A stretch of 64,000 nucleotides of DNA, from positions 13,373 to 77,372 of the forward strand of contig JAFGMO010000018.1 in assembly GCA_016927475.1 (NCBI GenBank). The letters are read 5' to 3'. The translations under genes and the position numbers were made by a program. The DNA comes from Candidatus Aminicenantes bacterium (GTDB lineage: Bacteria; Acidobacteriota; Aminicenantia; Aminicenantales; Aminicenantaceae). Under the pieces are notes generated by a model. That model searched no databases. It was not told the DNA's origin and was given only the letters and a program-made list of their open reading frames with translations. Below, piece by piece: positions 11,595 through 28,494 of this stretch (position 1 is its first letter; each line of letters starts with the position of its first letter).

Positions 11595-11597
11595 ACC

Positions 11598-12338: not shown

Positions 12339-12353
12339 AAGAGAGAAGGTTTT

Positions 12354-13580: not shown

Positions 13581-13583
13581 TAC

Positions 13584-14387
13584 ATGGCTTTTGTGAAGAC
13601 CCGGATTGATTCTTCCCTGGCTCTATTAACCTTGACAGATGGTCGTGAGGGAAACAGGTTGAACCTTGAGCGCCTCGAGGAACTGTCATCTTCTATGGAT
13701 GCGGCTTTCGATGATAAAAACGTGAGGGTGGTTCTTCTGCGTTCGAACGGTCCTGCATTCTGTCTGGGGATGGACCTGGAGCGTCTTATGGCAAACCAGG
13801 CAGAAAAACATCTTGAGGAGGCGGTTTCCCTGTATTCGTCTCTCCTGATCGGCATCATCGAAGCGCCGAAACCGGTTATTGCACTCGTTCAGGGAGACGT
13901 TAAAGCGGGAGGAGTGGGGCTGGCGGCGGCATGTGATATCGTCGTAACCGCAGATGACGCCTCTTTTGAACTTCCGGAAGTTTTCCTGGGGCTTATTCCG
14001 GCCAACGTCCTTCCTTTCCTTCTGCTGCTGCGCATGACGCCTTCTAAAGCCCGCTATGTCACCTTAACCGGAAAAAAACTTCAGGCTGAGGAAGCCCGCT
14101 TATGTGGGTTGGCGGACGAGGTTTTCCCCAGGCAGGATCTGGAAAAAGAGCTTAAAAGCATTATCAAACGGTTGATGCGGGCTTCACCCCAGGCTCTGGC
14201 CCGGATCAAGCGGTTTACAGGCGAAATGATCTCAGAAATGCTGCGGAAAAAATGCGGTGAGGCGCGGAAAGAACTTATAGAGCTGGTTAATGACGAGAAG
14301 GTAGCGGCGGCCATCAAATCTTTTCTGAATGGCGGAACACCGCCCTGGTTTGTAAAATTCAGGCCGGAAAAATCCCTGGTCGAGTGA
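13584..14387 (+). CDS. Enoyl-CoA hydratase/isomerase (crotonase) family, ECH1-like (PksH-like dehydratase)
   Basis: Crotonase-fold motifs: VVLLRSNGPAFCLGMDL, ALVQGDVKAGGVGLAAACDIV. Immediately follows HMGS. Confidence 0.7.
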   Translation: MAFVKTRIDSSLALLTLTDGREGNRLNLERLEELSSSMDAAFDDKNVRVVLLRSNGPAFCLGMDLERLMANQAEKHLEEAVSLYSSLLIGIIEAPKPVIALVQGDVKAGGVGLAAACDIVVTADDASFELPEVFLGLIPANVLPFLLLLRMTPSKARYVTLTGKKLQAEEARLCGLADEVFPRQDLEKELKSIIKRLMRASPQALARIKRFTGEMISEMLRKKCGEARKELIELVNDEKVAAAIKSFLNGGTPPWFVKFRPEKSLVE

Positions 14388-15160
14388 GGTGTCCCATGGG
14401 GGAAAAAATAATCACGCAGGTGGAGAAAAACGGTGTGGCCACCCTGCGCATGAATGATGCGGCAACCAACAACACTTTTACCGATGAGTTTATTTCAGGT
14501 TTTATTCAATGCCTGGAGAGAATCGAAGAAGCCGAACCGAAGGTTTTGATCCTTCAAGGTTTGCCGCAGGTCTTTTGCGCCGGAGCGGAAAAACGAAACC
14601 TTCTCGATTTATGCGAAGGCCGTATTCTTGTTAAGGATCTGCTCATTTCGGAGAAACTTGTTCAGGTTCCCTTTCCAGTGATTGCCGCCATGGAGGGACA
14701 TGCCGTAGGCGGGGGATTCGTCATGGCCATGTGCTGCGATATCGTCCTGGCGGCCCGTGAGAGCCGCTACGGCGTGGTCTTCATGTCCCTTGGTTTTACT
14801 CCGGGTATGGGCTGTACGACCCTCCTTCCAGAGCTTGTAGGTCCTTTCCTGGCCAATGAGATGATGTATACCGGCAAACGTTTCAAGGGGAGGGAACTGG
14901 CTGAAAGATCGACCAACATCAACTACATTCTTCCCAGAAAAGAAATCCTTCCTAAAGCGAAAGAGATCGCGCTGAGAATCAGTGAAATAAACCGAAAATC
15001 CCTCACTATTTTGAAAAACACACTGGCTGCCAGAAAGAAAAAACTGCTGATTGAAGCCCGTCTTCAAGAAGACCTCATGCACAGGATAAGCTTTGCTTAC
15101 CCTGAAACAAAAAAGGCGGTGGAGGAATTATATGCCGGGCAGGAAGAGGAGGAAAAATGA
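14384..15160 (+). CDS. Enoyl-CoA hydratase/isomerase family, ECH2-like (PksI-like decarboxylase)
   Basis: ILQGLPQVFCAGAE, AAMEGHAVGGGFVMAMCCDIVLAA; overlaps the previous gene by 4 bp (operonic coupling). Confidence 0.7.
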   Translation: MRCPMGEKIITQVEKNGVATLRMNDAATNNTFTDEFISGFIQCLERIEEAEPKVLILQGLPQVFCAGAEKRNLLDLCEGRILVKDLLISEKLVQVPFPVIAAMEGHAVGGGFVMAMCCDIVLAARESRYGVVFMSLGFTPGMGCTTLLPELVGPFLANEMMYTGKRFKGRELAERSTNINYILPRKEILPKAKEIALRISEINRKSLTILKNTLAARKKKLLIEARLQEDLMHRISFAYPETKKAVEELYAGQEEEEK

Positions 15161-15984
15161 TCCGGATCGACATGTCGGGCAAGTCGGTGTTGATAACCGG
15201 AGGCACAAAAGGCATTGGATTGGCTGCAGCCCTCGTGTTCGGCCGGGCGGGAGCCAGGACATATCTCACCTATAAATGGGGATCGGACGATTTTACTCCT
15301 CTTTACGATCTTTTCAAAAAAAACAATGCGGCTCCTCCTTTACTTTTTCAGGCCGATGTGGCCATTCCTGAGGATACGGATGCGCTTTTACAGGATGTGA
15401 AAAAGCATGAAAAACGAATCGATATTTTTATAAGCAATGTCGGTGTAGCCCAGAGAGCCCGTTCCTTGAGGGATTACCGGAAACGCTCTCTTTATCGAAC
15501 GCTCGATTACAGCACATGGCCGCTTATTGAGTACACGAAAAAAATCCATGAGGTATTTGATTGTTATCCCCGGCATATCGTCGGTATCTCAAGCGACGGA
15601 CCCGACCATTTTTATTCCGGTTATGACTATGTCGCCGCTTCCAAGGCGCTTTTGGAATTTTTCGCCAAGTACCTGTCTGTTCATCTTTTTGAAGAAGGAA
15701 GCCGTGTCAATATTATCCGTTTCGGACCCGTGAACACGGAATCTTTCTCCCTGGTATTCGGAAAAGAGTTCTTCGATTTCCTCAAAGAACAGGGGGTTCC
15801 CGAGGAGATGTTTATAACGACCGAAAACTGCGGCGAGACCGTTTTTGCCCTATGCAGCGGACTCCTGGATGCTGTAAACGGCCAGATTATTACCGCCGAT
15901 AAGGGCATGAGTTTCCGGGATAACATGATGATGCGTTATTTGAAAGAAAAAGAAAAAAAGAAAAAAATGGAGCGGAATGGGTAA
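15157..15984 (+). CDS. SDR-family reductase, enoyl-ACP reductase-like (FabI/FabL-type Y-x6-K) or ketosphinganine-reductase candidate
   Basis: LITGGTKGIGLAAAL; Y-x6-K spacing in YDYVAASKA as in FabI-type reductases; overlaps the upstream gene by 4 bp. Confidence 0.55.
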   Translation: MIRIDMSGKSVLITGGTKGIGLAAALVFGRAGARTYLTYKWGSDDFTPLYDLFKKNNAAPPLLFQADVAIPEDTDALLQDVKKHEKRIDIFISNVGVAQRARSLRDYRKRSLYRTLDYSTWPLIEYTKKIHEVFDCYPRHIVGISSDGPDHFYSGYDYVAASKALLEFFAKYLSVHLFEEGSRVNIIRFGPVNTESFSLVFGKEFFDFLKEQGVPEEMFITTENCGETVFALCSGLLDAVNGQIITADKGMSFRDNMMMRYLKEKEKKKKMERNG

Positions 15985-16161
15985 ACCCGGAAACCGCCTT
16001 AAGTGTTGATTTATAATCACAATTCAGAGTGCGAACACCCGCTTTTTTAAATAAAAATGTGAATCATCGATATTCCTATTTGCACTTTTTCGCCTAATAT
16101 AATATTATCCCTCTGAAGAGACTCGATTTGTGTCTGTATTATCCTGTGACGGAGGAGATGA

Positions 16162-16404
16162 ATGACTAGAGAGGAAGTTTTCAGCATCATCAAAAAAAAT
16201 ATCTTGGACAATCTTGAAGATATCGAGGAGGACGAGATTGATGGAGGAAAATCGATGAAAGATTATGGGGCGGACAGCCTCGATATTATCGAGGTGGTTT
16301 CCTGCTCCATGCGGGAACTCAAGATAAAAATCCCGAGAGCTGAACTTTCAGATATCAAAACGATAGATGAGTTGACGGATAAATTCATGGAATATATTAA
16401 ATAA
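16162..16404 (+). CDS. acpP: Acyl carrier protein
   Basis: 80 aa; DYGADSLDIIEVV with the phosphopantetheine-attachment Ser in DSL; acidic helix-rich. Confidence 0.8.
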   Translation: MTREEVFSIIKKNILDNLEDIEEDEIDGGKSMKDYGADSLDIIEVVSCSMRELKIKIPRAELSDIKTIDELTDKFMEYIK

Positions 16405-16492
16405 TCCTCTTCCGTGAGTTTTTTACGGATTGAGGGTGAAGAAAGAACCGGTGCGGAGCCTCATTGAGTAGAGGTTAAGTCAGGTTTATCAA

Positions 16493-17755
16493 ATGGATGA
16501 TCCCCTCAAATTCAGCTTGGCGGACTTTTTTTATAACGACAACTCAAGTGTTCTGAAGCCTCCGTCCGATTTTGTCGAATGGATGAGCGATCCCCGCATA
16601 CAAGCTGGATTCAGTTTTTTCGAGCAACAGCTTTTAAAAGCTCCCACCGCGGAAACCGAAATACTGAGCAATCTGGATAACAAGAAACGGCGGGTTATCA
16701 ACCTGACATCCTATAATTATCTTGGTTTATCGTCTCATCCCGAAGTCATTCAAGCCGCCATAGATGGATTGCGAAAATACGGACTGGGAGCTTCAGGTGC
16801 TCCTTTGCTTTCCGGAACCTTTGATCTTCATGTTCAGTTCGCCCGCATGCTGGCCGAATTCAAACAAAAAGAGGACTGCATCCTTTTCTCGAGCGGATTA
16901 GGGGGAAATCTGGGAATCATGCAGGGGATCCTGCGCAAGGGGGATCTTTTGCTCCTGGATGAGAAGGGACATAAGAGCCTTCTGGACGGGGGGAAATTGT
17001 CCGGAGCTAAGGTCCGGATGTTTGAGCACAACAGCGTGGAAGACCTGGCCCGCCTTCTTGATGAAAATAAGGATAAACGCATTCTTGTCGCCGTAGAAGG
17101 GGTTTATTCCATGGATGGAGACCTGGTCAAGCTTCCCGAGATCGTCGAGCTCTGCGAACCTTACGATAATGTGGAACTTCTCATTGATGAAGCCCACTCC
17201 ACCCTGATGTTCGGAGAGAACGGCAGGGGAGTGGCCGAGCATTTCGGCCTGGAAGATAAGATCGGAATTTCCTTCGGCACGCTGTCCAAGTCTTTCGGCG
17301 GGGTCGGGGGCTTTGTCTGTTCCAATGCCGGAATCATCCGTTATCTTAAGGGATACGCTTCCCCGTATAATTTTTCCTGTGCTCCCTCTCCTCCTATTGT
17401 GGCCGGTTTGATAAAAGCCCTGGAGGTAGCCACCAGAGATTCTTCGCTTCGCGATAAGCTATGGGAAAACACGGCTTATTTTAAGAAAAACCTGGATGCG
17501 TTGAACCTGAATATGGGGGCGACCGAATCTCAGGTCATTCCCATTATCATCGGATCTTCCGGGGAACTCCTCTTTGAGATGGCGGCAGAGATTCAGAAGC
17601 GGGGGCTTTTTCTTCAACCGGTCGATTTTCCGGCCGTCCCCGCCCATTCCCGGCGTTTCCGCATCTCCGTCTCTTCTCAGCTTACGAGGGAAAACATCGA
17701 CGAAGCCTGTAATATCATCGAGGATGTCATTGCCCGACGTCTTCGGAAAGTTTAG
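16493..17755 (+). CDS. PLP-dependent alpha-oxoamine synthase (BioF/Kbl/serine-palmitoyltransferase family); candidate Spt
   Basis: NLTSYNYLGLSSHPEVIQAA, SGLGGNLG, PLP-Lys region GTLSKSFGGVGGFV; 420 aa. Directly downstream of the ACP, as in bacterial sphingolipid loci. Confidence 0.8.
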   Translation: MDDPLKFSLADFFYNDNSSVLKPPSDFVEWMSDPRIQAGFSFFEQQLLKAPTAETEILSNLDNKKRRVINLTSYNYLGLSSHPEVIQAAIDGLRKYGLGASGAPLLSGTFDLHVQFARMLAEFKQKEDCILFSSGLGGNLGIMQGILRKGDLLLLDEKGHKSLLDGGKLSGAKVRMFEHNSVEDLARLLDENKDKRILVAVEGVYSMDGDLVKLPEIVELCEPYDNVELLIDEAHSTLMFGENGRGVAEHFGLEDKIGISFGTLSKSFGGVGGFVCSNAGIIRYLKGYASPYNFSCAPSPPIVAGLIKALEVATRDSSLRDKLWENTAYFKKNLDALNLNMGATESQVIPIIIGSSGELLFEMAAEIQKRGLFLQPVDFPAVPAHSRRFRISVSSQLTRENIDEACNIIEDVIARRLRKV

Positions 17756-17761
17756 AGATTA

Positions 17762-18310
17762 TTGGAACCTTTTTCCGACCTTCTTCGTACATTCCGGAAA
17801 AAACCGCTTATTCCTCTGGATCATATAGAGGCGAAATCATCCTTCCATAAACTGGACTGCGGACGCGAGGATATCAAAAAAATTATTCCCCACAGGGAGC
17901 CTTTTTTGCTCATCGATAAACTTCTGGGATTGGACCTGACTCCGGGGGAGGAGGTTATCCTGGGGGTTCGCTTCATTCCGGCTGAAGATCCCGTTTTTAA
18001 AGGTCATTTTCCGGAAGCTCCCCTTTATCCGGGGTCCCTTCAGCTTGAGATGTCCGGGCAACTGGGATTGTGTCTGACGTATTTTGTCGTCAACAAAAGG
18101 AAAACAATAGCCGAAAACGCCGAACCTTTAGCTGTTAGGGCGACAAAGGTTTTGGGTGCTCTTTTTTTGGAACCGGTTCTTCCGGACAGTGAGGTCCTGC
18201 TTCTTTCCAAACGTCTGGACTATGACGGTTATTTTGGAAGGGTGATAAGCCAGGTTTTACGAGAAGGTAAGGTCTGCAGCGTTTCCATTGCCGAAGTTCT
18301 TTTCCTTTAA
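17762..18310 (+). CDS. FabZ/FabA-like hotdog-fold 3-hydroxyacyl-ACP dehydratase
   Basis: HREPFLLIDKLL...VFKGHFPEAPLYPGSLQLEMSGQLG matches the FabZ HFPxxPxxPG...E active-site region. Confidence 0.65.
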   Translation: MEPFSDLLRTFRKKPLIPLDHIEAKSSFHKLDCGREDIKKIIPHREPFLLIDKLLGLDLTPGEEVILGVRFIPAEDPVFKGHFPEAPLYPGSLQLEMSGQLGLCLTYFVVNKRKTIAENAEPLAVRATKVLGALFLEPVLPDSEVLLLSKRLDYDGYFGRVISQVLREGKVCSVSIAEVLFL

Positions 18311-18328
18311 CTTGTGATAATGGGATGA

Positions 18329-19270
18329 TTATAAAGAAGATCCCCTGTCCTCAAGCTTTTCTTGTTCGGGAACGGCTTCCCAGCCGTAGTCGATGTATTC
18401 CCAGTCGAATGTTTGTCCTTTAACCTTAACCAGGACAAAGCCTTCCTCGACACCATGGTAGGGACCGTCCCACCACTCCCCTGATATGGCGCCGCCTGTA
18501 ATAAAAGTGATTCCGGCCGCTGTAATGGCTTCAAGGATATGCAGGTGTCCTTGGAGAACCAGTTTCAGGTTGTGATTCTTGAAAAGGTCGAGAACCTGCT
18601 TTGAATTAACAACGACCAATCCCCTGGGATTGGCTTCCGTGGATCCTTTTCTGATCTGCCTGTCGACGGTAATAAAAGGAATGTGGGTGCTTATAACGAT
18701 GGGAGTTTCCGGCTCGATATTTTGGAGGTCTTCAGCAATCCATTCCAACTGGTCGGTCCCAACCCAACCGATGTACTTACGGTCGTCAGTGGCATCTATG
18801 GAATCAAGCGCCATAAAGTGCCAGTCCTGGTAGTCAAAGGAATAATATCTTTTGCCGATCCTGTTTTCATACATCTTCTTGAAATATTGAGGATGCGAAG
18901 GGTCGACACCGCTGCTTTCGAGTAAGCCGAAAATCTCATGGTTGCCTATTGTGTTCCAGACAGGCATATTGAATCCTTTACTGAGCCGAAGATAGAGATC
19001 GTAGAAGGACATAGCCTGCTCAAAATTCTGTCCTAGAGCGTCACTGATCAGGTCTCCTCCTGTAATGACAAAATCCGGATCAAGTTTGTTGATGAGCGTT
19101 ATGGCTTTTTCGAATCCCTGGGGTGCATTTTTCTCCGGCTGAATATGAATGTCGGTCAGGAAGACGAATGTGAAGTTTTGGTTTTGCCTGTGGCATGAAA
19201 CAACGCCCCACAAAAGCAGAAGGAAAGAGATAAACGCCGTCCACCGCCAAAATCTTTTTTTTCTATTCAT
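18329..19270 (-). CDS. Secreted calcineurin-like metallophosphoesterase
   Basis: Start set at MNRKKRFWRWTAFISFLLLLWG (signal peptide, GGAAGAGG RBS). GD..GNHE..GHLH metallophosphatase motifs: FVFLTDIHI, GGDLISD, GNHEIF, QGHLHILE. Confidence 0.65.
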   Translation of the reverse strand: MNRKKRFWRWTAFISFLLLLWGVVSCHRQNQNFTFVFLTDIHIQPEKNAPQGFEKAITLINKLDPDFVITGGDLISDALGQNFEQAMSFYDLYLRLSKGFNMPVWNTIGNHEIFGLLESSGVDPSHPQYFKKMYENRIGKRYYSFDYQDWHFMALDSIDATDDRKYIGWVGTDQLEWIAEDLQNIEPETPIVISTHIPFITVDRQIRKGSTEANPRGLVVVNSKQVLDLFKNHNLKLVLQGHLHILEAITAAGITFITGGAISGEWWDGPYHGVEEGFVLVKVKGQTFDWEYIDYGWEAVPEQEKLEDRGSSL

Positions 19271-19322
19271 GTTGCCTCTTCCTTTCACATTCATTGAATG
19301 CTGGGAATAGGAGTTTTTTTCC

Positions 19323-20597
19323 TCAGCCTGTGAATCGGGAAATGATAAGGCTGGCGTTTTGTCCACCAAATCCAAAGCTGTTGGATAAAACATTGTTCAC
19401 AGGGAATTCAACCGGCGCCTTGGAAGGGATGTTGAGGTCGATTTCGGGGTCCATTTCGAAAAGATTGATGGAAGGATGGACAATTCCTTTCTGAATGGCC
19501 AGGATTGAGGCAATGGCTTCTGTTCCGCTGGCCGCCCCGATCAGGTGTCCAATCATGGATTTTGTGCTGTGGACATAAATTTGGTCCGTACGTTCTCCAA
19601 AAACTTGCCGGATAGCCCGGCTTTCCGCCACGTCTCCCAGGATGGTCGAAGTGCCGTGGGCATTAATGAGTTCGATGTCTCCCTTGTTGAGCTGAGCGTT
19701 TTGAAGGGCGAGGGCCATCGCCGCTGCGGCGCCTTTTCCTTCCGGATCGGGAGCGACAAGGTCATAGGCATCACAGGACAATCCGAATCCTTTGAGTTCG
19801 GCATAGATGTTGGCGCCTCTTTTTTTTGCGAATTCCAGTTCTTCCAAACAGAGGACTCCTGCTCCCTCGCTGAGAACAAAACCGTCCCGGTCCTTATCGA
19901 AGGGCCGGCTGGCCGTTTCCGGGCTGTCGTTTCTCCGGGAAAGGGCATAGATAATGGAGAATCCGGAGTAGCCGGCTTCATTGAGGACTCCTTCCGTTCC
20001 ACCGCATATCATAACATCGGCTGCGCCTGCTTTGATCAGCACCATGGCGCTTATAATGGCGTGATTGCTTGTGGCGCATGCGGAATTAACGGAAAAATTC
20101 GGTCCCTGAAAATGGAATTCTTTGGCGAAGAAAGCCGGCGGCATGTTGGGTATAACGCCCACGGCATAATAAGGAGAGACGGATTCCATTCCTTGTTTTT
20201 GTATCCTTTTGCACATTTCGAAATGGAGTCCATTTCCTGCATCCCCAGTGCCGATGACGGCTCCGAACCGAAAGGGATTTTTTTCAACCAGGGAAGGCTC
20301 GAGCCCTGCGTCCTTATAAGCCTGGACCGCGGCGACATGGCCGAAAACAATGAACCTGTCGACGCGTTTGAGAAGTTTTTTTGGGAAAAAGTCACCGATA
20401 TTATCCGGAAAGTCGACCTCTCCTCCAATCCTGACATTAAACTCGCTTAAATCCGTATGTTGGGCCGTTCTGACACCTGATTTTCCGGCGGTCAGGTTTT
20501 CCCAAAATTCCTGGACATTGTTTCCTATGGGATTGATCGTTCCCATGCCGGTGACGACAACCCTACGTTCACCGAAATTATTTTTTGTGGATCTCAT
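19323..20597 (-). CDS. fabF: Beta-ketoacyl-ACP synthase II
   Basis: RVVVTGMGTINPIGNNVQEFWENLTAGKSGV; catalytic triad regions SACATSNHAI, NAHGTSTILGD, HSTKSMIGHLIGAAS; C-terminal NSFGFGGQNASL. Confidence 0.85.
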   Translation of the reverse strand: MRSTKNNFGERRVVVTGMGTINPIGNNVQEFWENLTAGKSGVRTAQHTDLSEFNVRIGGEVDFPDNIGDFFPKKLLKRVDRFIVFGHVAAVQAYKDAGLEPSLVEKNPFRFGAVIGTGDAGNGLHFEMCKRIQKQGMESVSPYYAVGVIPNMPPAFFAKEFHFQGPNFSVNSACATSNHAIISAMVLIKAGAADVMICGGTEGVLNEAGYSGFSIIYALSRRNDSPETASRPFDKDRDGFVLSEGAGVLCLEELEFAKKRGANIYAELKGFGLSCDAYDLVAPDPEGKGAAAAMALALQNAQLNKGDIELINAHGTSTILGDVAESRAIRQVFGERTDQIYVHSTKSMIGHLIGAASGTEAIASILAIQKGIVHPSINLFEMDPEIDLNIPSKAPVEFPVNNVLSNSFGFGGQNASLIISRFTG

Positions 20598-20739: not shown

Positions 20740-21165
20740 TCAGATGAAAATTTCCTTGAAAACAGGATTGGGCCCCATTTTTTTGATGCTTTCGGTGAAT
20801 TCGTTGGTGACTTTTTCGTAACGGGGTGCTTCCGAAGCTGAAACCCACCACAACCCTATGCGTTTTTCATCAAGGCCCAGGGTTTTTAAAATGGTGTCGA
20901 GCATTACATATCTCCGCCTCGTGCTGTAATTGCCTTTTTGGTAATGGCAGTCTCCCGGGTGACAGCCCATCATCATGACGCCGTCAGCACCCTTTAAGTA
21001 GGTTCTCAAAACAAAAAGGGGATCGATTCTACCCGAACACATGACTCTTATGATCCGGATGGAAGGAGGGATGTGCATCCGGGCCGTACCGGCGAGGTCC
21101 GCTCCTGTGTAGGAACACCAATTGCATAAAAAACCGATGATTGTCGGTGTGAAATCTTTATCCAT
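20740..21165 (-). CDS. mvhD: MvhD/FlpD-like hydrogenase-delta-type iron-sulfur subunit (copy 1)
   Basis: IIGFLCNWCSYTGADLAG...VMCSGRIDP...GCHPGDCHY is the MvhD family Cys pattern. Confidence 0.8.
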   Translation of the reverse strand: MDKDFTPTIIGFLCNWCSYTGADLAGTARMHIPPSIRIIRVMCSGRIDPLFVLRTYLKGADGVMMMGCHPGDCHYQKGNYSTRRRYVMLDTILKTLGLDEKRIGLWWVSASEAPRYEKVTNEFTESIKKMGPNPVFKEIFI

Positions 21166-21192
21166 TATAATCGTCCTTTTTTGAAAGAGACT

Positions 21193-22305
21193 TTAATGTT
21201 CTCCAACTTCCTTAAATTCTTCTTCCTTGAATGTACCTGAAGGTACGGGCTCTTCGATGTCTTTTCCAGGAGAATACTGGAATACGTCCTGAAGAGCGGC
21301 TCCGACTTTGGTGAAAACGTCGGCAACCGGAATATTAACCGGGCATACATCGGAGCACATGCCACAGGCAACACAAGAAACAGCCATATGGCTCATTCTG
21401 CCGAGATGATAAAACAGGGTGCCCGGGGGGATCTTAAGTCCGCCCTTGTGTTCCAGTTCGGATTCATAACTTTCAGGTTTATATTCGCAAGTTTTTGAAT
21501 CAAAATCGCAAAGTGTACAGTAACAAATAGGGCAAGCTTCACCACATCCATGACATCCCAAACAAGCCGCGAAAACCCTGGAAAAACCGCTGATCCCGTT
21601 TCCCGTTTTTTCGAAATCCTTAAAGAGTTTTTCCTTGTTTTCTTTCCGTTTGGATTTTAATTTTTCCGTTTCGGAAGATTCGATTTCCGCGGAAATGGTG
21701 TTTCCAGGAGCATCCTTGGCAAAATTTTCACCTTGTTTTGTATTGAGGTAAATAATGCATTCTTTGTCCGCATCTTTTTTCCCAACGGTCAGCACGGTCA
21801 TGTCAGCCAATTGCGGAAGGAAATTATCACAGCTCTGGCATGTTTTCCTAACATCCGGTGAGTTTTCTGCCTTCTTGAGAGATTCGGCGTAGCTGGAAGA
21901 ACGTTTTTTTGCATCCCCGTTGTTCATCGTATCAATAGGGAAAACACCACCGCAGCTCAAACTGATAAGAAGGATATTTTCCAGGCTGCCTTGGGCTCTT
22001 TTAATGAGTTCGACAAAAGCCCTTAATTCACAAGGGCGAAGAACCGCAGCAACAGGGCGTTTGGTTTTTTCAGCTAAAGTAAAATGGGAGAGAATTTTTC
22101 CCGCATTGACGGGCATATGCGGATCCAAAGGAACCGCTCCTTTCAGCTCATCCTTGTTTGTGATTAATGAATATGCAATGTTTCCGTTTTTGTTGAGTTT
22201 CTTGAGAGAAAAAATTCCCTCAACCTTTTCACTGTCTAGGAGGAATTCAAGCAGTTGAAGTAATCCTTCTTCCGTATTTTTATTGATTTTAAGTGCTTTG
22301 GCCAT
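21193..22305 (-). CDS. Iron-sulfur protein with C-terminal 2x[4Fe-4S] module, AsrA/HydB/FrhB-like (paralog A)
   Basis: CLGCHGCGEACPICYCTLCDFD and CVACGMCSDVCPVNIP; C-x2-C-x2-C-x3-C-P-x-C-x-C pattern as in anaerobic sulfite reductase subunit A-type proteins. Assignment tentative. Confidence 0.5.
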   Translation of the reverse strand: MAKALKINKNTEEGLLQLLEFLLDSEKVEGIFSLKKLNKNGNIAYSLITNKDELKGAVPLDPHMPVNAGKILSHFTLAEKTKRPVAAVLRPCELRAFVELIKRAQGSLENILLISLSCGGVFPIDTMNNGDAKKRSSSYAESLKKAENSPDVRKTCQSCDNFLPQLADMTVLTVGKKDADKECIIYLNTKQGENFAKDAPGNTISAEIESSETEKLKSKRKENKEKLFKDFEKTGNGISGFSRVFAACLGCHGCGEACPICYCTLCDFDSKTCEYKPESYESELEHKGGLKIPPGTLFYHLGRMSHMAVSCVACGMCSDVCPVNIPVADVFTKVGAALQDVFQYSPGKDIEEPVPSGTFKEEEFKEVGEH

Positions 22306-22308
22306 TTT

Positions 22309-23547
22309 TTATGCCTTTCCTAATAAACTTTGATCACATTCACATGGGATCTCAACCTCACAGAATTCATCTTTCAAAAAGGACTGCAGCGGCAGCGGTA
22401 CGTTTCTATCGGTTCCCGGAACATACTGAAAACTCTTCTGGGTTTGATCCCCGACCATGGAAAATATCTGGGATACGGGAACGGACATGGGACAGGCATC
22501 TTCGCAAGCCCCGCAGGAAACACAGGATAGAACCATGTGTGACATCCTTCCAAGGTGGAATAACAAAGTGTCTAAAGGAAACCGGAGAGATCCTCTTTCC
22601 TGTGCCCGTTGGAGATAGGTTTCGGGTGAGTTTTCCAGGATTTTTGAGTCAAAATAGCACTGCTGGCAATAGCATACGGGACAGACCCTCATGCAGTTAT
22701 GGCAGTTGATACAAGCATCTAAGGCGGTGGTAAAGTTTTCGATACCGCCGATTTTTTCCTGCCATTCTTTATTGAATGATTCTCTATTTTTTAGAGCCGA
22801 TTGTCGTATTTTTTCACCGGCGGCTTTCCAATATTCCAGCGAATCGTCCTGGGATAGCTCCAGCTTTTCCAGGAGGTCCTTTCCCTTGGAGGTTGAAGCC
22901 GTAAGACAGAGTTTTTTTCCGTTTCCTCCGAAAAAGCCGATGTGAAGGTCAGCGGCGGAATGGTTCTCTGTGTCTGGTGAAGAAGAGGCTTTTGTCTCTT
23001 CGGTTGAAGGTGATGAGAGAAGACTGAAATGTTGGCAGATTTGACAGACAGGCCTTAAAGCTTCGTTTTTGTCCCCTTTTTGTACAATTTTCTCAAAGTT
23101 TTCCTTTGATTTTATCGGGTTGTCCATGTATTCCTTAAGGGGTAGGGCTCCGGGACAATCTATGCTAATAAGATGGATGTGTTCTAATTTAACCTGGTTC
23201 AGTTTATAGAGTTCCACAGCGGCTCGTATTTCGCAGGGCCGCATGAGAGCGCCGATTTTAAGATAAACATCTCCCTGCTTGGTAATACTATCAAGAGCTC
23301 TTCCTCCCTGAACCGTCATAACAGGCGGTAGGGGGTCGGCTGCGTCAAGCAGCGTCTCATCCTCAAGCAGAACCCAGGCGTACGATTCCGTTTCCGGCGC
23401 CTTCATGGGAACCAGAACTGCATCCAAGGTGTTGTTTTTGAGGAGTTTTTTCAATAGCCCTTTTATGGTTTTTCGAAGATCGCCTTCAACGGAAAGAATC
23501 TTTCCTGTCGCGGTTTTCTCTTTTTTTTCCTTACCTGTGGAGTTCAT
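22309..23547 (-). CDS. Iron-sulfur protein, AsrA/HydB/FrhB-like (paralog B of 21193..22305)
   Basis: CINCHNCMRVCPVCYCQQCYFDS and CVSCGACEDACPMSVP. N-terminal domain collinear with paralog A (RPCEIRAAVEL vs RPCELRAFVEL). Confidence 0.5.
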   Translation of the reverse strand: MNSTGKEKKEKTATGKILSVEGDLRKTIKGLLKKLLKNNTLDAVLVPMKAPETESYAWVLLEDETLLDAADPLPPVMTVQGGRALDSITKQGDVYLKIGALMRPCEIRAAVELYKLNQVKLEHIHLISIDCPGALPLKEYMDNPIKSKENFEKIVQKGDKNEALRPVCQICQHFSLLSSPSTEETKASSSPDTENHSAADLHIGFFGGNGKKLCLTASTSKGKDLLEKLELSQDDSLEYWKAAGEKIRQSALKNRESFNKEWQEKIGGIENFTTALDACINCHNCMRVCPVCYCQQCYFDSKILENSPETYLQRAQERGSLRFPLDTLLFHLGRMSHMVLSCVSCGACEDACPMSVPVSQIFSMVGDQTQKSFQYVPGTDRNVPLPLQSFLKDEFCEVEIPCECDQSLLGKA

Positions 23548-23585
23548 TCTTTTCTCCTTTTCTGCTGACTCGTAACTTTTGCATA

Positions 23586-25268
23586 TTAACGCAGGGCTTC
23601 CAGGACTTCTCTGTAGAGTTGGGTATAGGTAAAATGTTTGGAGCGTATGGCTCCTGATGGACAGCTGCCGACACAGCTCCCACAGCCTCTACAGATGGCC
23701 TCGTTGACGACGGATACCCCTTTGTGAGGATCAAAGCTGATCGCCCCGTAAAAACAAACTGAGAGGCAGGTCTGGCATCCTGTGCAGAATTCTTCCCGGA
23801 CTACCGAAACTTTAACCTCGGGTTTGATCTTTTTGCCCGGAATCAAGCTGGAGATGATATTTCCTGCTGTGGCTTGTGCCTGAATGATTGATTCAGGTAT
23901 GTTTTTCGGTCCAAGGGAACATCCGGCTGCGAACACTCCTTCGATGGGGGTGGCGATGGGTTCAAGCATCCCATGGGCTTCTTTGATAAAACCGGTTGGA
24001 TCGAGGGGAAGATTCAGCATTTCGGCAATCTTTTTTGAATCGGCGGACGGAATCATAGCGGGAGAAAGAACGGCCATGTCGACAGAAATTTTTTTTGATT
24101 TTCCGTCGATTTTGTATTCTACAGAAATCTGACCGCCCTCTGCCTTGATGTTGACAATCTCATTTGATCTGAGAAATTTGACTCCCTTCTTTTCAACTTC
24201 TTCGTAATAATCCTGGTCCGCTTTATTGGGAAGACAAAGGTCCCGATAGATCTCCGTTACGTCCACATCCTTGATTTTATCTTTAAGGAAATGGGCATTT
24301 TTAAGGATGTTAAGACAGCATGTTTTGGAGCAGTAACCTTTTTCACTCCGTCCGACACAATGGATAAGGGCGAGGGACCGGGGTGGTTTGCCGTTTTTGA
24401 GAAGGACCTTTTCCGTTTTTATCATCTCTTCCAGTTGAAGAGAGGTTACGACGTTATCAACTTTCCCCAACCCATAGGCAGGATTTTCTTCCGGATTAAA
24501 GAGATCAAATCCTGTGGCGACGACGACAGCTCCCACTTTGATTTCCTGCTCGCCGGCATTTTCCCCTTTTTGTATAACCACCTCAAAATTGCCGAGGAAA
24601 CCCCGGGCGTCCACAACCTGGCTTCCTGTAAAAACTTCGATATGGGCGTTTTTATTCAATGTGTCGATTTTTTCTTGTATAAGTGAAAGAGTGGAACCCT
24701 GATGTGGTAAAAGCCGGGACAGTTTGTTGGCCTTGCCTCCCAGTTCTTCGGATTTTTCGACAATGAAAACCTTCCTATCCTCACCGGCCAAGGAAAGTGC
24801 GGTTTCGATCCCGGAAATACCTCCTCCTATGACGAGAACATCGGTGCAGACTTCCAATTCCTTTTTTGTTAAGGCTTGGTGAAGGGAGACGCGGCTAATT
24901 CCGGCACGGATATATTTGATGGCTTTTTCGGTGGCTGCTTCTTTGTCCGGTATCATCCAGGCACATTGTTCCCTGATATTGACCAATTGAACAAGATAAG
25001 GATTGAGCCCCGCCCGCTCAGCAACGGTCATAAAAGTCTGTTCATGGTCCCGGGGGGAACAGGCGGCGATGACAACATGAGTCAGCTCTTCCTTTCGCAT
25101 TTCGTCTTCAAGGTATTTTTTCCCGTCATTGGAACAAAGAAGGCCAAATCGCTTGGCTACTTTGACATGGGGAAGAGAAGCTATCGCTTCCAAAACTTTG
25201 TCGATATCAATCTTTTCTCCAATGTTGGGCCCGCATTCACAAACATAAACTCCTATATTTCCATTCAT
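23586..25268 (-). CDS. hdrA: Heterodisulfide reductase subunit A-like / QmoB-type flavoprotein (without fused MvhD domain)
   Basis: IGVYVCECGPNIGEKIDIDKV N-terminus; FAD fold VLVIGGGISGIETALSLA...VEKSEELGGK; C-terminal ferredoxin CTGCQTCLSVCFYGAI and CRGCGSCVGSCPSGAI; 560 aa. Confidence 0.8.
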   Translation of the reverse strand: MNGNIGVYVCECGPNIGEKIDIDKVLEAIASLPHVKVAKRFGLLCSNDGKKYLEDEMRKEELTHVVIAACSPRDHEQTFMTVAERAGLNPYLVQLVNIREQCAWMIPDKEAATEKAIKYIRAGISRVSLHQALTKKELEVCTDVLVIGGGISGIETALSLAGEDRKVFIVEKSEELGGKANKLSRLLPHQGSTLSLIQEKIDTLNKNAHIEVFTGSQVVDARGFLGNFEVVIQKGENAGEQEIKVGAVVVATGFDLFNPEENPAYGLGKVDNVVTSLQLEEMIKTEKVLLKNGKPPRSLALIHCVGRSEKGYCSKTCCLNILKNAHFLKDKIKDVDVTEIYRDLCLPNKADQDYYEEVEKKGVKFLRSNEIVNIKAEGGQISVEYKIDGKSKKISVDMAVLSPAMIPSADSKKIAEMLNLPLDPTGFIKEAHGMLEPIATPIEGVFAAGCSLGPKNIPESIIQAQATAGNIISSLIPGKKIKPEVKVSVVREEFCTGCQTCLSVCFYGAISFDPHKGVSVVNEAICRGCGSCVGSCPSGAIRSKHFTYTQLYREVLEALR

Positions 25269-25301
25269 TTTATTTTATCCTCTTCATGATATCGTCCTCT
25301 T

Positions 25302-26576
25302 TTATTGGAGATGCAAAAGGACTTTTCCAACGGCTGCCTCTGCTTGGGCGATGGAGTCAGGAATGTCTTTAGGTCCTTCTGCACATCCCGCGATGAAGAT
25401 GCCTTTTTTTTCAGTTATAACGGGAGAAAGCTGTTGGTTTTGTGTGGCAAAAAAACCGTGTGTGTCCAACCCGACGCCCAGAATTTTTGCTAGAGTTTCC
25501 GTATCTTTTCCAGGAATGAGAGCTGGTGAAAGGATGACCATGTCGGCTTTGATTTTTTGGTCTTGCCCATTTTCTTCGCTGCAGGTGATCTCGATATTCC
25601 CATTCGATTTTCCGACGTGAATTTCATTAAAGCGGATAAAATTTACCCCTTTCTTCCGAGTGCTTTCATAAAAATTTTGATAGGATTTTCCTGGAATGCA
25701 GAGATCCCTGTAGAATTCATGAATTTTTGCATCAGGGGCTTTATGTTTGAGAAATTGAGCGATTTTGGCGGAATACATACAACAAACTCCGGAACAGTAA
25801 CCCAGTTCTTTTCTCCCGATACAATGAATGATTCCAATGGATTTGATGGGTTTATCGTCTCTTAAGACCAATTTGCCTTCAGTGGGCCCGTTTTGGGCAT
25901 AAAGCCTTTCAAATTCCATGGCCGTATAGACATTCGGATATTTCCCGTAGCCGTACTCGTCCAAAGGTTTGACGTCGAACATGTCGAATCCTGTTGTGAC
26001 GATAATGGCTCCAACGTCGATCTTGACCTTCTCATCTTTTTGGGAAAAATCAACGGCATCAAACATACATGCTTCCTGGCATGCTTTGCAGTCTTTCTTT
26101 TTCCCGTTAAGCCGAAGGCAGTTCGCCGGATCGATGGTGGGAACATTCGGCAGAGCTCCCGGGCAGGGAACGGATATGGCTTTTTTCTTTGAGAGGTTTT
26201 CTTCAAATGTGTTGTCGAGTTCAACGGGACAGGGGTCAAAACAGGCATTGCAACCTATGCAGTTTTCAAGGCTGACATAGCGTGCTTTTTTTTCGATTTC
26301 GACCTCATAGCTGTCGCTTTTTTCCTCAACTTTTTTTAACGTACTGAGCAGGGATACTTCAATATCCTCATTTTGGAGGACATCCTGTTGGATGGGAGCT
26401 ACCATACAGGTAGCACACTCCATGTTTGGATAAACCTCTTCAAATTTGATGGTTTGACCGCCGATGAGTGATTCTCTTTCGATCAGATGTACTTTTACTC
26501 CCGCCTGGGCAAGCAAAAGGCTTGCCTTCATTCCGGCTACTCCTGCTCCGACCACCATAACATTATGTTGTTTCAT
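25302..26576 (-). CDS. Short HdrA-like flavoprotein, QmoA-type
   Basis: VMVVGAGVAGMKASLLLAQAG...IERESLIGGQ; ECATCMVAP; inserted ferredoxin CIGCNACFDPCP and CKACQEACMFDAV; 424 aa, QmoA size. Confidence 0.75.
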   Translation of the reverse strand: MKQHNVMVVGAGVAGMKASLLLAQAGVKVHLIERESLIGGQTIKFEEVYPNMECATCMVAPIQQDVLQNEDIEVSLLSTLKKVEEKSDSYEVEIEKKARYVSLENCIGCNACFDPCPVELDNTFEENLSKKKAISVPCPGALPNVPTIDPANCLRLNGKKKDCKACQEACMFDAVDFSQKDEKVKIDVGAIIVTTGFDMFDVKPLDEYGYGKYPNVYTAMEFERLYAQNGPTEGKLVLRDDKPIKSIGIIHCIGRKELGYCSGVCCMYSAKIAQFLKHKAPDAKIHEFYRDLCIPGKSYQNFYESTRKKGVNFIRFNEIHVGKSNGNIEITCSEENGQDQKIKADMVILSPALIPGKDTETLAKILGVGLDTHGFFATQNQQLSPVITEKKGIFIAGCAEGPKDIPDSIAQAEAAVGKVLLHLQ

Positions 26577-26594
26577 TTTTTGTTTTTCCCTTCC

Positions 26595-27020
26595 TCAGAT
26601 TTTGGGATTCTTGTGGATGGGATTAGGACCCATTTTTGTGATTTCGTCGGAGAATTTGTTGACTACTTCTGCGTATCTTTTTCCTTCTGATGCGGAAACC
26701 CAGGATAGTTGAAGCCGGTCGGGTTCAAGCTTCAAAGTTTCCATGATCTTTTTCAGCAGGGCGAATCTTCTTCGGGCGTAATAATTTCCCTGTTCGTAAT
26801 GACAGTCGCCGGGATGGCACCCGGCTATAAGAACACCGTCGGCTCCCCAGAGAAGTGCCGTCAGGACAAGGTTTGAATTTATCCGGCTTGAACACATAAC
26901 ACGTATCACGGATAGATAAGGCTTGACTTCCATTTTGCTTGAACCGGCAAGATCAGCACCTGCATAGGAGCACCAGTTGCACAAAAAGCCCACAATATTC
27001 GGTTTAAAATCGGAACTCAT
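26595..27020 (-). CDS. mvhD: MvhD/FlpD-like iron-sulfur subunit (copy 2)
   Basis: IVGFLCNWCSYAGADLAG...VMCSSRIN...GCHPGDCHY; paralog of 20740..21165. Confidence 0.8.
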   Translation of the reverse strand: MSSDFKPNIVGFLCNWCSYAGADLAGSSKMEVKPYLSVIRVMCSSRINSNLVLTALLWGADGVLIAGCHPGDCHYEQGNYYARRRFALLKKIMETLKLEPDRLQLSWVSASEGKRYAEVVNKFSDEITKMGPNPIHKNPKI

Positions 27021-27103
27021 TTTTTCTCTCTTTCTGATTAAGTTCCGAAGGGAGACTTATCTTCTTCCTTCGGATGGTTATCGCGGATGTTTTAAGAGAG
27101 TGA

Positions 27104-27328
27104 TTAAAACTGAATTTGGGCAGTGTGTTTTCCCTCGGCATCCGTATTGCAGAAAAGAAGTGTTTTTCCCGTCTTTTCTGACCAGGCTTTGATATCTTTG
27201 GGAAAAGATTCGCAGTCGGCTACGACTTCAAGAATATCTCCCGCGCTCATCTTAGGGGCGAGGGCCGCCACTTTAAGAATGGGCTGGGGGCATTTTAATC
27301 CTAAAGCGTCCAATGTTTGATTAGCCAT
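27104..27328 (-). CDS. tusA: TusA-like sulfurtransferase
   Basis: 74 aa; LDALGLKCPQPILKV with the CPxP persulfide-carrier motif at the canonical position. Confidence 0.75.
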   Translation of the reverse strand: MANQTLDALGLKCPQPILKVAALAPKMSAGDILEVVADCESFPKDIKAWSEKTGKTLLFCNTDAEGKHTAQIQF

Positions 27329-27372
27329 TTTATTCCTCCTTATTGAATAAAAAATGTATAAATGATATGGAC

Positions 27373-27726
27373 TCAGAATGAAAACGTTATCGTTGCGTCC
27401 TTGATTTCATTAATAAACGTGGTGGCACCGATAATTTCCACGCCTTCTCTGAAATCTTCTTTTTTCAGGTCTTTAGCTTCCAGGGCCAATTCACAGACAT
27501 AAATCTTGCCTCCCAGAGTACAAAGGCCTTCGTAGAGTTCCAGCAAGTTCGGCAGACCTTTTCCTTCCATTTTTTCGATCACGCCTTTAACCATAGCAGG
27601 TGCTCCTCCGGGACAGAAAAAAATGTGGACTTCGTCTCCTGATGCAGCGGCTGATGAGCCGAGAATAAAAGGCGGAAAAACATTTTTTCCTTCTGTACCG
27701 TTAACCGTAATCGCTACTTTGGACAT
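27373..27726 (-). CDS. DsrE/DsrF(DsrE2)-like sulfur-relay protein
   Basis: 117 aa; MSKVAITVNG...HIFFCPGGAP...KIYVCELAL, the DsrE-family fold pattern with conserved Cys. Immediately upstream of tusA in the same operon. Confidence 0.6.
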   Translation of the reverse strand: MSKVAITVNGTEGKNVFPPFILGSSAAASGDEVHIFFCPGGAPAMVKGVIEKMEGKGLPNLLELYEGLCTLGGKIYVCELALEAKDLKKEDFREGVEIIGATTFINEIKDATITFSF

Positions 27727-27812
27727 TTAAACCTCCTGAATTTTAAGTGATGTATTTTTTGAAAACACAAAAACGAGATGGAAAGGAATACCGATTTTTG
27801 TATCTTTCCAGC

Positions 27813-28091
27813 TCATTTGACAGCCTGTATGATTTTATTTATGAGATCTCTTTTCGTCAAAAAATAACAGCGCAGGTTTCCTTGCTGGCGGTAATTCACG
27901 ATGCCGCTGTATTTAAGGATGTTCAGATGCTGAGAAATGTTGGGTTGGGTGACATTAAAAAGGTCCTTAATGTCGTTTACGCATCTTTCGTCTTCTAAAA
28001 GAAGCTCAACCATGTGAAGACGTATGGGATGGGACAAGGCTTTAAAAATCTGGGCGTTTCGAATGCGTATTTCTTTCTTTTCGGGTGTCAT
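27813..28091 (-). CDS. ArsR/SmtB-family transcriptional regulator (possible persulfide/sulfur-responsive repressor)
   Basis: ALSHPIRLHMVELLLEDERCVNDIKDLFNVTQPNISQHLNILKYSGIV is an ArsR HTH; two Cys (ERC, LRC). First gene of the sulfur-relay/Hdr-like operon. Confidence 0.75.
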   Translation of the reverse strand: MTPEKKEIRIRNAQIFKALSHPIRLHMVELLLEDERCVNDIKDLFNVTQPNISQHLNILKYSGIVNYRQQGNLRCYFLTKRDLINKIIQAVK

Positions 28092-28494
28092 GAAAACACT
28101 TTTAACTAATTAATTATTTAATTATCCGGTTAAGTGGGAAACACTTTATAATACAAATGAAAAAAATTTTCAATGGTTTTTTAATTGTTTTTTAAATTTT
28201 GATTTTATGTTTCATGGTTTTTGGTCTTTCTCCCATGGTTGTTTTGTCTCCCCTGCAAAAGATGTACGCCATCGGACATGGATTGTTTCACAATGAAACA
28301 GATTTTGGTTCCTTTAGGATTTATATGAGAGGATTGTTTCTAAGATTTCTGGTTTTATTATAGGCTTGGAATGGGGAGTACGTTTTTGTGTTGATATTGG
28401 CATATTCATTGCATTTTATTAAACATTTGGAACGGGCCGGGCAAAAAAATAAAATGCGGCTCGTCGTTATCAGACTCGGCCCGTTCTAAGATGT

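Follow-up and report, generated by a model that had tools for sequence, protein, structure and literature searches.

A conserved gene cluster linking a split HdrA pair and FdhB-like proteins to TusA- and DsrE-like sulfur carriers in Candidatus Aminicenantes and other mostly uncultured bacteria

The gene cluster described here lies on contig JAFGMO010000018.1 of Candidatus Aminicenantes bacterium, in a stretch of 64 kb (the window) that was examined together with ~7 kb to its left and ~1 kb to its right, ~72 kb of genome in all. Nine open reading frames (ORFs) on the minus strand at 20740-28091 were assigned by Pfam and NCBIfam profiles to, in order, an arsR regulator, a dsrE-like and a tusA-like gene, mvhD, a short and a long hdrA, two genes for iron-sulfur (FeS) paralogs and a second mvhD, with spacers of 86, 44, 83, 18, 33, 38, 3 and 27 nucleotides (nt) between them. 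An earlier note on this DNA had described nine co-directional genes with short gaps, and this layout holds, with every ORF on the minus strand and gaps of 3-86 nt. One genome per GTDB species was scanned by alignment of the first FeS paralog (FdhB-like 1), which yielded 80 loci, and the ORFs of these loci were then searched with the nine window proteins. Individual loci are cited below by L numbers.

The centre of the cluster encodes two HdrA flavoproteins. HdrA-short (424 amino acids (aa); 25302-26576) aligns to residues 143-557 of Methanothermobacter marburgensis HdrA (E = 3e-92) and consists of the thioredoxin-reductase-like flavin adenine dinucleotide (FAD) domain with the inserted ferredoxin domain, lacking the N-terminal as well as the C-terminal domain, and it keeps the Cys pair of the "DCSMC" region, including Cys197. 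HdrA-long (560 aa; 23586-25268) aligns to residues 13-244 and 323-652 of the same protein (E = 3e-115), hence the inserted ferredoxin domain is absent; the N-terminal FeS, the FAD and the C-terminal 2x[4Fe-4S] domains are retained, and the Cys197 pair is lost. The four Cys ligands of the HA4 [4Fe-4S] cluster (C-x(n)-C-x3-CC) are present in both proteins and invariant in 21/21 orthologues. Judged by alignment, the short and long proteins divide HdrA between them as a heterodimer, each having lost domains that the other keeps. The label "Qmo-like", under which the cluster had been filed, appears to add nothing to this description, as both flavoproteins are ~40-45% HdrA-like. Their best model matches are to methanogen HdrA models, no Qmo-specific model or reference sequence having come up.

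A short motif distinguishes this pair from other members of the family. In the other HdrA and HdrL ORFs of the loci, Y-x-D-[IMV]-R-x-x-G-K occurs ~27 residues past the HA4 ligands, with Arg in 56/65 (86%) of the motif matches, and of the nine that depart from this, five have Cys and come from fragments or unsplit versions of the TusA-linked HdrA family. In the TusA-linked core, both subunits carry D-L-C-x-P-x-K instead, with Cys replacing Arg: Cys293 in HdrA-short (25698-25700) and Cys345 in HdrA-long (24234-24236). This signature Cys was found in 35/36 regular-expression matches of core short and long subunits, in 20/21 and 19/21 orthologues by alignment, and in at least one subunit of every locus with a readable motif. 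From Rossmann-fold topology, it would sit at the end of beta-2, beside the HA4-binding segment, and its occurrence in both subunits suggests an altered exit from HA4 and not a standard dock for HdrC. The "AGC" Cys beside the FAD motif was considered as a second family signature and rejected, since other HdrA types carry it too.

The HdrA and FeS genes are bracketed by two genes for MvhD-type [2Fe-2S] connector proteins. MvhD1 (26595-27020) matches FlpD at 3e-51 as well as VhuD and the HdrA2 C-terminus, MvhD2 (20740-21165) matches FlpD at 2e-50, and the two, 57% identical to one another, keep the Cys ligands of their methanogen counterparts. In L026, L029, L032, L034, L036 and L068, an in-frame TGA replaces Cys68 of GCHPGDCHY in both mvhD genes; these loci belong to Cloacimonadota, Delongbacteria, Armatimonadota and Desulfobacterales (e.g., L036:6315-6760 and L036:12258-12700), and the genes are probably selenocysteine variants, as in VhuD.

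The FeS paralogs (protein 1, 412 aa, 22309-23547; protein 2, 370 aa, 21193-22305) are 34% identical to each other, and both match FdhB/ElpB of the Fdh-Hdr and Elp-Hdr complexes over their full length. Protein 1 matches the beta subunit of F420-dependent formate dehydrogenase (PDB 9t1s_M) at 1e-37 over residues 21-385, as well as 8rvu_E and 7bkb_E, and protein 2 matches 9t1s_M at 5e-37. All 15 Cys common to the paralogs and FdhB are invariant in 19-20 orthologues of each paralog (19/19 for protein 1), and the cluster Cys motif is present as CINCHNCMRVCPVCYCQQC and CLGCHGCGEACPICYCTLC. The earlier note had taken this motif as a signature of AsrA; the duplication and the motif stand, the AsrA label does not, since the motif is that of FdhB, carried by 9t1s_M as CIKCYGCRDVCPVCFCRDC. 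Neither paralog matches Fer4_22 (PF17179) at E <= 0.01, while an AsrA-like ORF in L036, which served as positive control, does so at 1e-33, and the ShyB model gives 15.9 bits for the paralogs against a cut-off of 690. Identity as AsrA or sulfhydrogenase beta is ruled out by the missing Fer4_22 match together with the full-length match to FdhB. A Candidatus Aminicenantes metagenome-assembled genome (MAG) encodes a protein with 100% identity to protein 1.

Binding of a flavin by the FdhB-like proteins is doubtful, since they show no recognisable FAD pyrophosphate motif of the FrhB family. FrhB itself binds its flavin via the conserved 24-QDGG motif and the loops 71-77 and 131-138 (PMC3930138), and FdhB and ElpB have ECGG and HCAPT at these places. 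Neither the GG motif nor the HCAPT loop is recognisable in the two paralogs, where the N-terminal alignment, at ~30% identity, is not decisive; the CGG/CPG loop, which bears a cluster ligand, is kept in both, and a ~25-residue insertion is absent from both. FrhB_FdhB_N finds no match in either paralog, and FrhB_FdhB_C gives only a partial one, in protein 2 (4e-10). The FdhB-like proteins of clusters in anaerobic methanotrophic archaea (ANME) and Desulfobacteraceae likewise lack the QDGG/ECGG and HCAPT motifs.

Genes for HdrB, HdrC, QmoC and FdhA were found neither in the window nor in the ~8 kb of flanking DNA. Translated in six frames, the window shows no CCG-domain pattern, the operon has no CCG match in Pfam, and all seven CxxCxxCxxxC motifs of that translation fall within four operon genes. 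By Pfam, the other large ORFs of the window encode transporters, TonB receptors, peptidases, a sulfatase and lipid/polyketide-like proteins, and the flanks hold alpha-2-macroglobulin, penicillin-binding protein, PilZ and MaoC genes and no redox genes in the ~7 kb on the left or the ~1 kb on the right. The six-frame motif scan and Pfam thus uphold the earlier description of a soluble module without HdrBC, QmoC or another membrane subunit, and HdrBC genes just outside the operon can be dismissed for the ~72 kb covered. An aprAB/sat linkage was not seen, the operon neighbours being lipid-synthesis, transporter and peptidase genes, and by Pfam none of the nine operon genes is GcvH-like, as LbpA would be. 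The cluster thus conforms neither to QmoABC nor to the sHdr system, as had been claimed, the operon having no QmoC, apr/sat, HdrB/C or LbpA. The same survey bears on the idea that the two FeS proteins are simply the beta subunits of a formate dehydrogenase or a hydrogenase that depends on F420 or NAD and has its catalytic subunit encoded close by. The best PDB matches are indeed FdhB, and JGI names the homologues "formate dehydrogenase subunit beta"; however, no molybdopterin (ElpA/FdhA-type) or [NiFe] subunit is encoded in the window or its extension, neither kind is one of the 25 families that recur most often when the 170 ORFs flanking 27 loci are counted, and the FAD/F420 motifs have diverged. 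An ordinary formate dehydrogenase was rejected for the lack of FdhA in the window and extension, and this explanation as a whole is largely refuted and highly improbable. Of the possibility, raised beforehand, that the paralogs are FrhB/FdhB subunits with their partner alongside, the FdhB-type family is what was found and the catalytic partner is not.

Upstream of the redox genes lie the two putative sulfur carriers. The TusA-like protein (74 aa; 27104-27328) scores 57.7 bits with Pfam TusA (cut-off 28.6) and has three Cys that are invariant in 26/26 orthologues, C13 in the CPxP motif, C39 in an ADC motif and C60. Its GLKCPQP segment aligns with Cys19 of Escherichia coli TusA, and the position of C39 is occupied there by Asp45 (alignment to 1dcj/3lvj). 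With 38 bits, it misses the cut-off of the NCBIfam TusA equivalog (78), and hence it is better regarded as TusA-like than as an orthologue of the tRNA-thiolation protein. A reading in terms of selenium metabolism (YedF) is weak, at 32 bits against a cut-off of 79, and the selenocysteine variants of MvhD occur in some lineages only. The DsrE3-like sulfurtransferase (117 aa; 27373-27726) is assigned by Pfam DsrE/DrsE_2 (DrsE_2, 3e-15) and stays below the cut-off of the DsrE2 model (50 against 210 bits). Its single invariant Cys, Cys78 (27493-27495), is kept in 25/25 orthologues and the C-terminal TFSF is invariant; its nearest solved relatives are the DsrE-family proteins 2qs7 and 3mc3 of Saccharolobus (Sulfolobus) solfataricus, with whose YVC/FAC Cys it aligns.

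The core of mvhD, short hdrA, long hdrA, fdhB-like 1, fdhB-like 2 and, in part, the second mvhD was recovered in 41 loci from at least 10 mostly uncultured lineages, labelled as MAGs of Aminicenantes, Dehalococcoidia, Latescibacterota, WOR-3, Cloacimonadota, Fermentibacteria/Aegiribacteria, Delongbacteria, Armatimonadota and unclassified bacteria, and three further metagenome contigs show the same gene order. Of the 31 loci counted by script as having upstream DNA, L016 was dropped, since it begins at a contig end inside mvhD1. In 27 of the 30 usable loci, tusA and/or dsrE lie directly upstream of the core, and arsR is present in at least 12. In the reverse direction, independently chosen TusA homologues from Zixibacteria and WOR-1-type bacteria lie in the same cluster. 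A neighbourhood survey had been named beforehand as a test of the linkage, and its outcome, obtained from both directions, is that tusA and dsrE are co-inherited with the HdrA core across phyla. The TusA-like protein is also the most conserved of the nine, with a median identity to the window orthologue of 72% across phyla, followed by MvhD1 (69%), DsrE (67%), MvhD2 (60%), short HdrA (56%), long HdrA (54%), FdhB-like 1 (47.5%), FdhB-like 2 (46%) and ArsR (46%), which implies that the small carrier is constrained at least as much as the redox core.

The first gene encodes an ArsR/SmtB-type regulator (92 aa; 27813-28091; HTH_5 6e-14; NCBIfam HTH_metalloreg 82.8 bits, cut-off 55) with two conserved Cys, C75, which is invariant, and one at position 36/37 (C37 in the window protein), present in 13/13 orthologues. 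Its proposed membership in the group of BigR/SqrR persulfide sensors could not be established: the score with the BigR model is 53 bits (cut-off 155), and of the two conserved Cys, the second sits in the beta-wing (RCY), the C-terminal helix having none. In sensors of that type, the Cys pair is made up of one in the alpha2/alpha3 region and one in the C-terminal alpha5. Upstream of arsR on the minus strand, a promoter-like TTGAAA-17-TATAAA, a consensus match only, is followed by an AT-rich palindrome (28102-28172 together, palindrome 28102-28133), which is a candidate operator; the inverted repeats I4, I5 and I7 fall in this region before the arsR ATG. Taken as a whole, the promoter scan was not above shuffle expectation, and a scan for the terminator consensus was likewise at background. 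A hairpin with a U-tract directly follows the arsR stop codon and precedes dsrE (27760-27818, minus strand; repeat I3, arms 27771-27785 and 27804-27818); its fold of -24.6 kcal/mol (z = -3.9) was equalled in stability by 0/200 shuffles, and it appears terminator- or attenuator-like. A second hairpin, without a U-tract, lies on the same strand in the tusA-mvhD1 spacer (27044-27074; -21.8 kcal/mol, z = -3.0) and is a possible processing or stability element. The two stable hairpins inside the operon suggest differential expression of regulator, carriers and complex.

Taken together, we favour, at a probability of roughly 40%, a soluble HdrA-type flavin/FeS complex in which the three-Cys TusA would stand where HdrBC and the heterodisulfide of coenzymes M and B (CoM-S-S-CoB) do elsewhere: the substrate would be a disulfide or sulfane sulfur that TusA carries, with the DsrE3-like protein as its loader. 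The argument is built on the complementarity of the split HdrA, the FdhB/ElpB homology with its shared Cys and the absence of HdrBC, QmoC and FdhA from ~72 kb; on the tusA/dsrE synteny, the top conservation of TusA and its three Cys, of which C39 is missing from the ordinary TusA of a neighbouring second cluster (described below), where "GTD" stands at the ADC motif; and on the alignment of DsrE Cys78, the Arg-to-Cys signature of HdrA and the two conserved Cys of ArsR. In such a complex, the FdhB-like/MvhD arms would pass electrons into the HdrA heterodimer, or draw them out of it, much as ElpB/ElpC do in Elp-Hdr, where an FdhB homologue and an MvhD homologue donate electrons to HdrA (PMC12350162). 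The low-potential branch would exchange electrons with ferredoxin via the inserted ferredoxin domain of HdrA-short, and the high-potential branch, which normally runs from HA4 to HdrC/HdrB, would end at the signature Cys (DLCxPxK) beside HA4. This Cys would reduce sulfane sulfur or a di- or trisulfide on TusA (Cys13/Cys39/Cys60) with release of H2S, DsrE would load sulfur onto TusA, and the two-Cys ArsR regulator would tie expression to thiol or persulfide status. The persulfide-reducing or bifurcating function proposed in the earlier note is thereby made more plausible, while NAD(P)H as its donor finds no support in the operon, the sole NAD-binding module seen being an AsrB-like protein of the second cluster in other genomes. 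A bolder version would see here a heterodisulfide-reductase-like enzyme of a type not recognised before, with the disulfide/persulfide chemistry of the noncubane clusters of HdrB moved to the Cys beside HA4 of a split HdrA and the three-Cys TusA, bearing sulfane sulfur, acting as CoM-S-S-CoB does. Sulfur would then be reduced by membrane-free, flavin-based electron bifurcation, the energy being conserved in reduced ferredoxin, and a dozen phyla from sulfidic sediments and digesters, uncultured and nominally fermenters, would do so; this more specific picture seems to us rather unlikely.

Several points weigh against the TusA-directed reading. L020, L021 and L035 carry the core without tusA or dsrE upstream, and in the first two, both Cloacimonadota, it is preceded instead by hdrB, a full-length hdrA (650 aa, with the Arg motif) and mvhD; the split HdrA nevertheless has the DLCxP Cys at least in L020. 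The candidate catalytic Cys is placed near HA4 by fold topology and not by coordinates. With the FAD motif missing from both, the FdhB-like proteins may be plain FeS wires, and HdrBC could be encoded elsewhere in the genome, ~72 kb being the part examined. By our own estimate, bifurcation from NAD(P)H would have a weak high-potential acceptor in the persulfide/H2S couple. Owing to the hairpins after arsR and between tusA and mvhD1, co-transcription of the nine genes is not certain; the functional argument is carried by the conservation from genome to genome.

In one alternative, the complex works with a catalytic partner encoded elsewhere, be it HdrBC, an HdrD-like protein or a second cluster with HdrL and TusA that often adjoins the first, and this partner would receive its sulfur from TusA and DsrE in the manner of the sHdr or DsrC/DsrK systems. 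The ~72 kb visible of the window genome leave room for it, and hdrB-like ORFs do occur within 10 kb of the TusA-type core in ~7/41 loci (L013, L018, L019, L021, L025, L022 and L033). The earlier note had asked whether homologous loci always stand beside hdrBC or qmoC, and as regards hdrB they do not; in most loci, that of the window included, the 10 kb to either side encode no CCG protein, and the CCG proteins of L022 and L033 belong to a GlcD/HdrD lactate-dehydrogenase-like pair. In these two loci (L022:1252-4378, L033:1886-4992), genes for a GlcD-like FAD oxidase, an HdrD-like protein (Fer4_8 and CCG), a ferredoxin and an extra MvhD lie directly upstream of arsR/dsrE, a hint that electrons may come from lactate or glycolate in this lineage. 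In ~10 genomes (L005:11800-18827 and L036:12619-20037; also L019, L026, L029, L032, L034 and L035), the first cluster is followed directly downstream by the second, which ends with its own, ordinary TusA, after genes for HdrL (~1020-1060 aa, two fused HdrA units), MvhD, a short FrhB-like protein, an AsrA-like Fer4_22 protein, an AsrB-like NAD/FAD/2Fe-2S protein and an HdrC-like protein; it is absent from the 64-kb window. Pfam counts over the flanking ORFs of 27 loci gave no constant extra partner, the scattered matches being ferredoxins, rhodanese (L005), CCG in three members and HdrL downstream. As the Arg-to-Cys change in both HdrA also points to an altered HA4 exit in place of an HdrC dock, we judge a partner elsewhere to be fairly improbable.

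Relatives without the carriers bear on another alternative, in which the complex is an Elp/Nfn-like bifurcating or confurcating module with no sulfur substrate. The FdhB-like proteins would then be the substrate sites, be it for a partner enzyme, for F420H2 or for NAD(P)H, electrons would be divided by the HdrA heterodimer between ferredoxin and a second soluble carrier, and TusA/DsrE would serve only cofactor maturation, regulation or an unrelated sulfur relay. The full-length FdhB/ElpB homology and the Elp precedent speak for it, two distinct FdhB paralogs could hold two specificities, and the FdhB-like family does occur without TusA/DsrE, in the arrangements HdrL-MvhD-FdhB1-FdhB2-MvhD-HdrA in Desulfobacteraceae and Anaerolineales, MvhD-FdhB-HdrB-HdrA in ANME-1 and Methanosarcinales, and HdrL-MvhD-short FdhB in Desulfobacterales. 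However, these TusA-less relatives keep the Arg motif of HdrA and usually have HdrB, neither FdhB-like protein of the operon has the canonical FAD motif in recognisable form, and a mere accessory role fits poorly with a TusA that is conserved above every redox subunit, has invariant variant-specific Cys and, with dsrE, is linked to the core in all but three of the usable loci. A module of this type is accordingly a rather unlikely explanation.

The reaction might also run in the oxidative direction, with sulfane sulfur delivered by DsrE/TusA being oxidised and the electrons confurcated or passed to ferredoxin, as in a sulfur oxidation or disproportionation module like sHdr. The same carrier pair, TusA with a DsrE3-type protein, reportedly feeds the sulfur-oxidising sHdr system (PMC11094781), and rhodanese genes lie upstream in L005, a metagenome contig in which three of them and a porin gene directly precede dsrE-arsR-tusA (L005:329-3999). 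The operon, for its part, has neither HdrB-type noncubane-cluster domains nor LbpA, and a catalytic module that would add oxygen atoms or form sulfite is not evident in it. The hosts of the cluster belong to fermentative lineages that are not known to oxidise sulfur, and a role in oxidation is improbable.

"Orphan" hdrA and mvhD genes in MAGs are routinely scored as MvhADG-HdrABC or formate dehydrogenase, and a survey of Cloacimonadota lumps its hdrA genes in this way; a large, coherent subset of them represents a TusA/DsrE-coupled HdrA complex instead. If carrier-bound sulfur is what the complex reduces, abundant fermenters would have a hidden role in the cryptic sulfur cycle, and HdrA-based bifurcation would for the first time be seen to have a protein persulfide as its acceptor. 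Fermentative anaerobes of sulfidic habitats would then be able to dispose of electrons on zero-valent sulfur inside the cell, possibly with reduction of ferredoxin, or, in an alternative role, remove reactive sulfane sulfur. A role of HdrA without HdrBC thereby becomes directly testable with six subunits, two carriers and defined residues (HdrA C293/C345; TusA C13/C39/C60).

Beyond the operon, a gap of 142 nt with a promoter-like site at 20694-20667 separates mvhD2 from fabF, and a lipid/polyketide-like gene set adjoins at 10311-20597 of the window. It comprises two ketoacyl synthases, short-chain dehydrogenases/reductases, a 3-hydroxy-3-methylglutaryl (HMG)-CoA synthase, two enoyl-CoA hydratases, an acyl carrier protein, an aminotransferase like 8-amino-7-oxononanoate synthase or serine palmitoyltransferase, a FabA/ApeI-like dehydratase and a metallophosphoesterase, and resembles a beta-branching (HMG-CoA synthase cassette) pathway for an unusual lipid. 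Sulfatase genes share the contig with the cluster (window 46133-48121; in a related lineage L088-L090:2896-5037), which probably reflects a heterotrophic context.

Two known systems offer mechanistic analogies without any sequence relationship to the operon, namely DsrC/DsrK and ferredoxin:thioredoxin reductase. The likeness would lie in a small protein with a Cys-bound di- or trisulfide as redox substrate and in a Cys beside a [4Fe-4S] cluster as reducing site. Among the homologous systems, HdrABC has one four-domain, homodimeric HdrA together with HdrC and an HdrB of two CCG domains, whereas in the operon the HdrA domains are divided over the proteins of 424 and 560 aa and both HdrB and HdrC are missing. 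In ANME and Moorella, heterodimeric or fused HdrA paralogs show complementary loss of the N-terminal domain and the Cys197 region, and ANME-1 has HdrA clusters with FdhB only (Chadwick et al., 2022, PMC9012536). These clusters share the complementary HdrA pair and the FdhB-like and MvhD genes with the operon, but they have HdrB(C) or HdrD, keep the Arg motif and lack TusA/DsrE, and the operon differs in each of these respects.

QmoABC of sulfate reducers and sulfur oxidisers likewise combines two HdrA-derived flavoproteins, short and long, with an MvhD-type module in a sulfur context, yet it has the membrane subunit QmoC (haem b/FeS), a linkage to aprAB/sat and a fused MvhD, all of which are missing from the operon, and the FdhB-like pair is extra to it. 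For "type II QmoAB", which are present in organisms that have no Dsr/Apr, study is called for in PMC10504309. The sHdr system (PMC11094781, PMC6067878) resembles the operon in the TusA and DsrE3-type pair beside HdrA-like genes and in the common ArsR-type regulator, and differs in sHdrB1/B2/C1/C2 and LbpA, in place of which the operon has MvhD and FdhB-like subunits; the TusA of the operon has two extra invariant Cys, and its hosts are anaerobes. With ElpABC-HdrABC and FdhAB-MvhD-HdrABC of methanogens (8rvu, 7bkb, 9t1s; PMC12350162), the operon shares an FdhB-type four-cluster protein, MvhD and HdrA (FAD, HA4 and ferredoxin domains), with all shared Cys ligands conserved and a Sec/Cys variation of MvhD like that of VhuD. 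In contrast to them, the operon lacks HdrB, HdrC, ElpA, FdhA and the QDGG/ECGG motif, has HdrA split in two, two FdhB paralogs and two MvhD, carries Cys for Arg in HdrA and is linked to TusA/DsrE, and its hosts are bacteria that make no CoM or CoB. By this analogy, the module would do what the HdrA core and its electron-donor arm do in Elp-Hdr and Fdh-Hdr. No description of the nine-gene cluster was found in the searchable full-text literature, and the TusA/DsrE-linked cluster is a real, conserved and apparently undescribed variant of the HdrA-based complexes.

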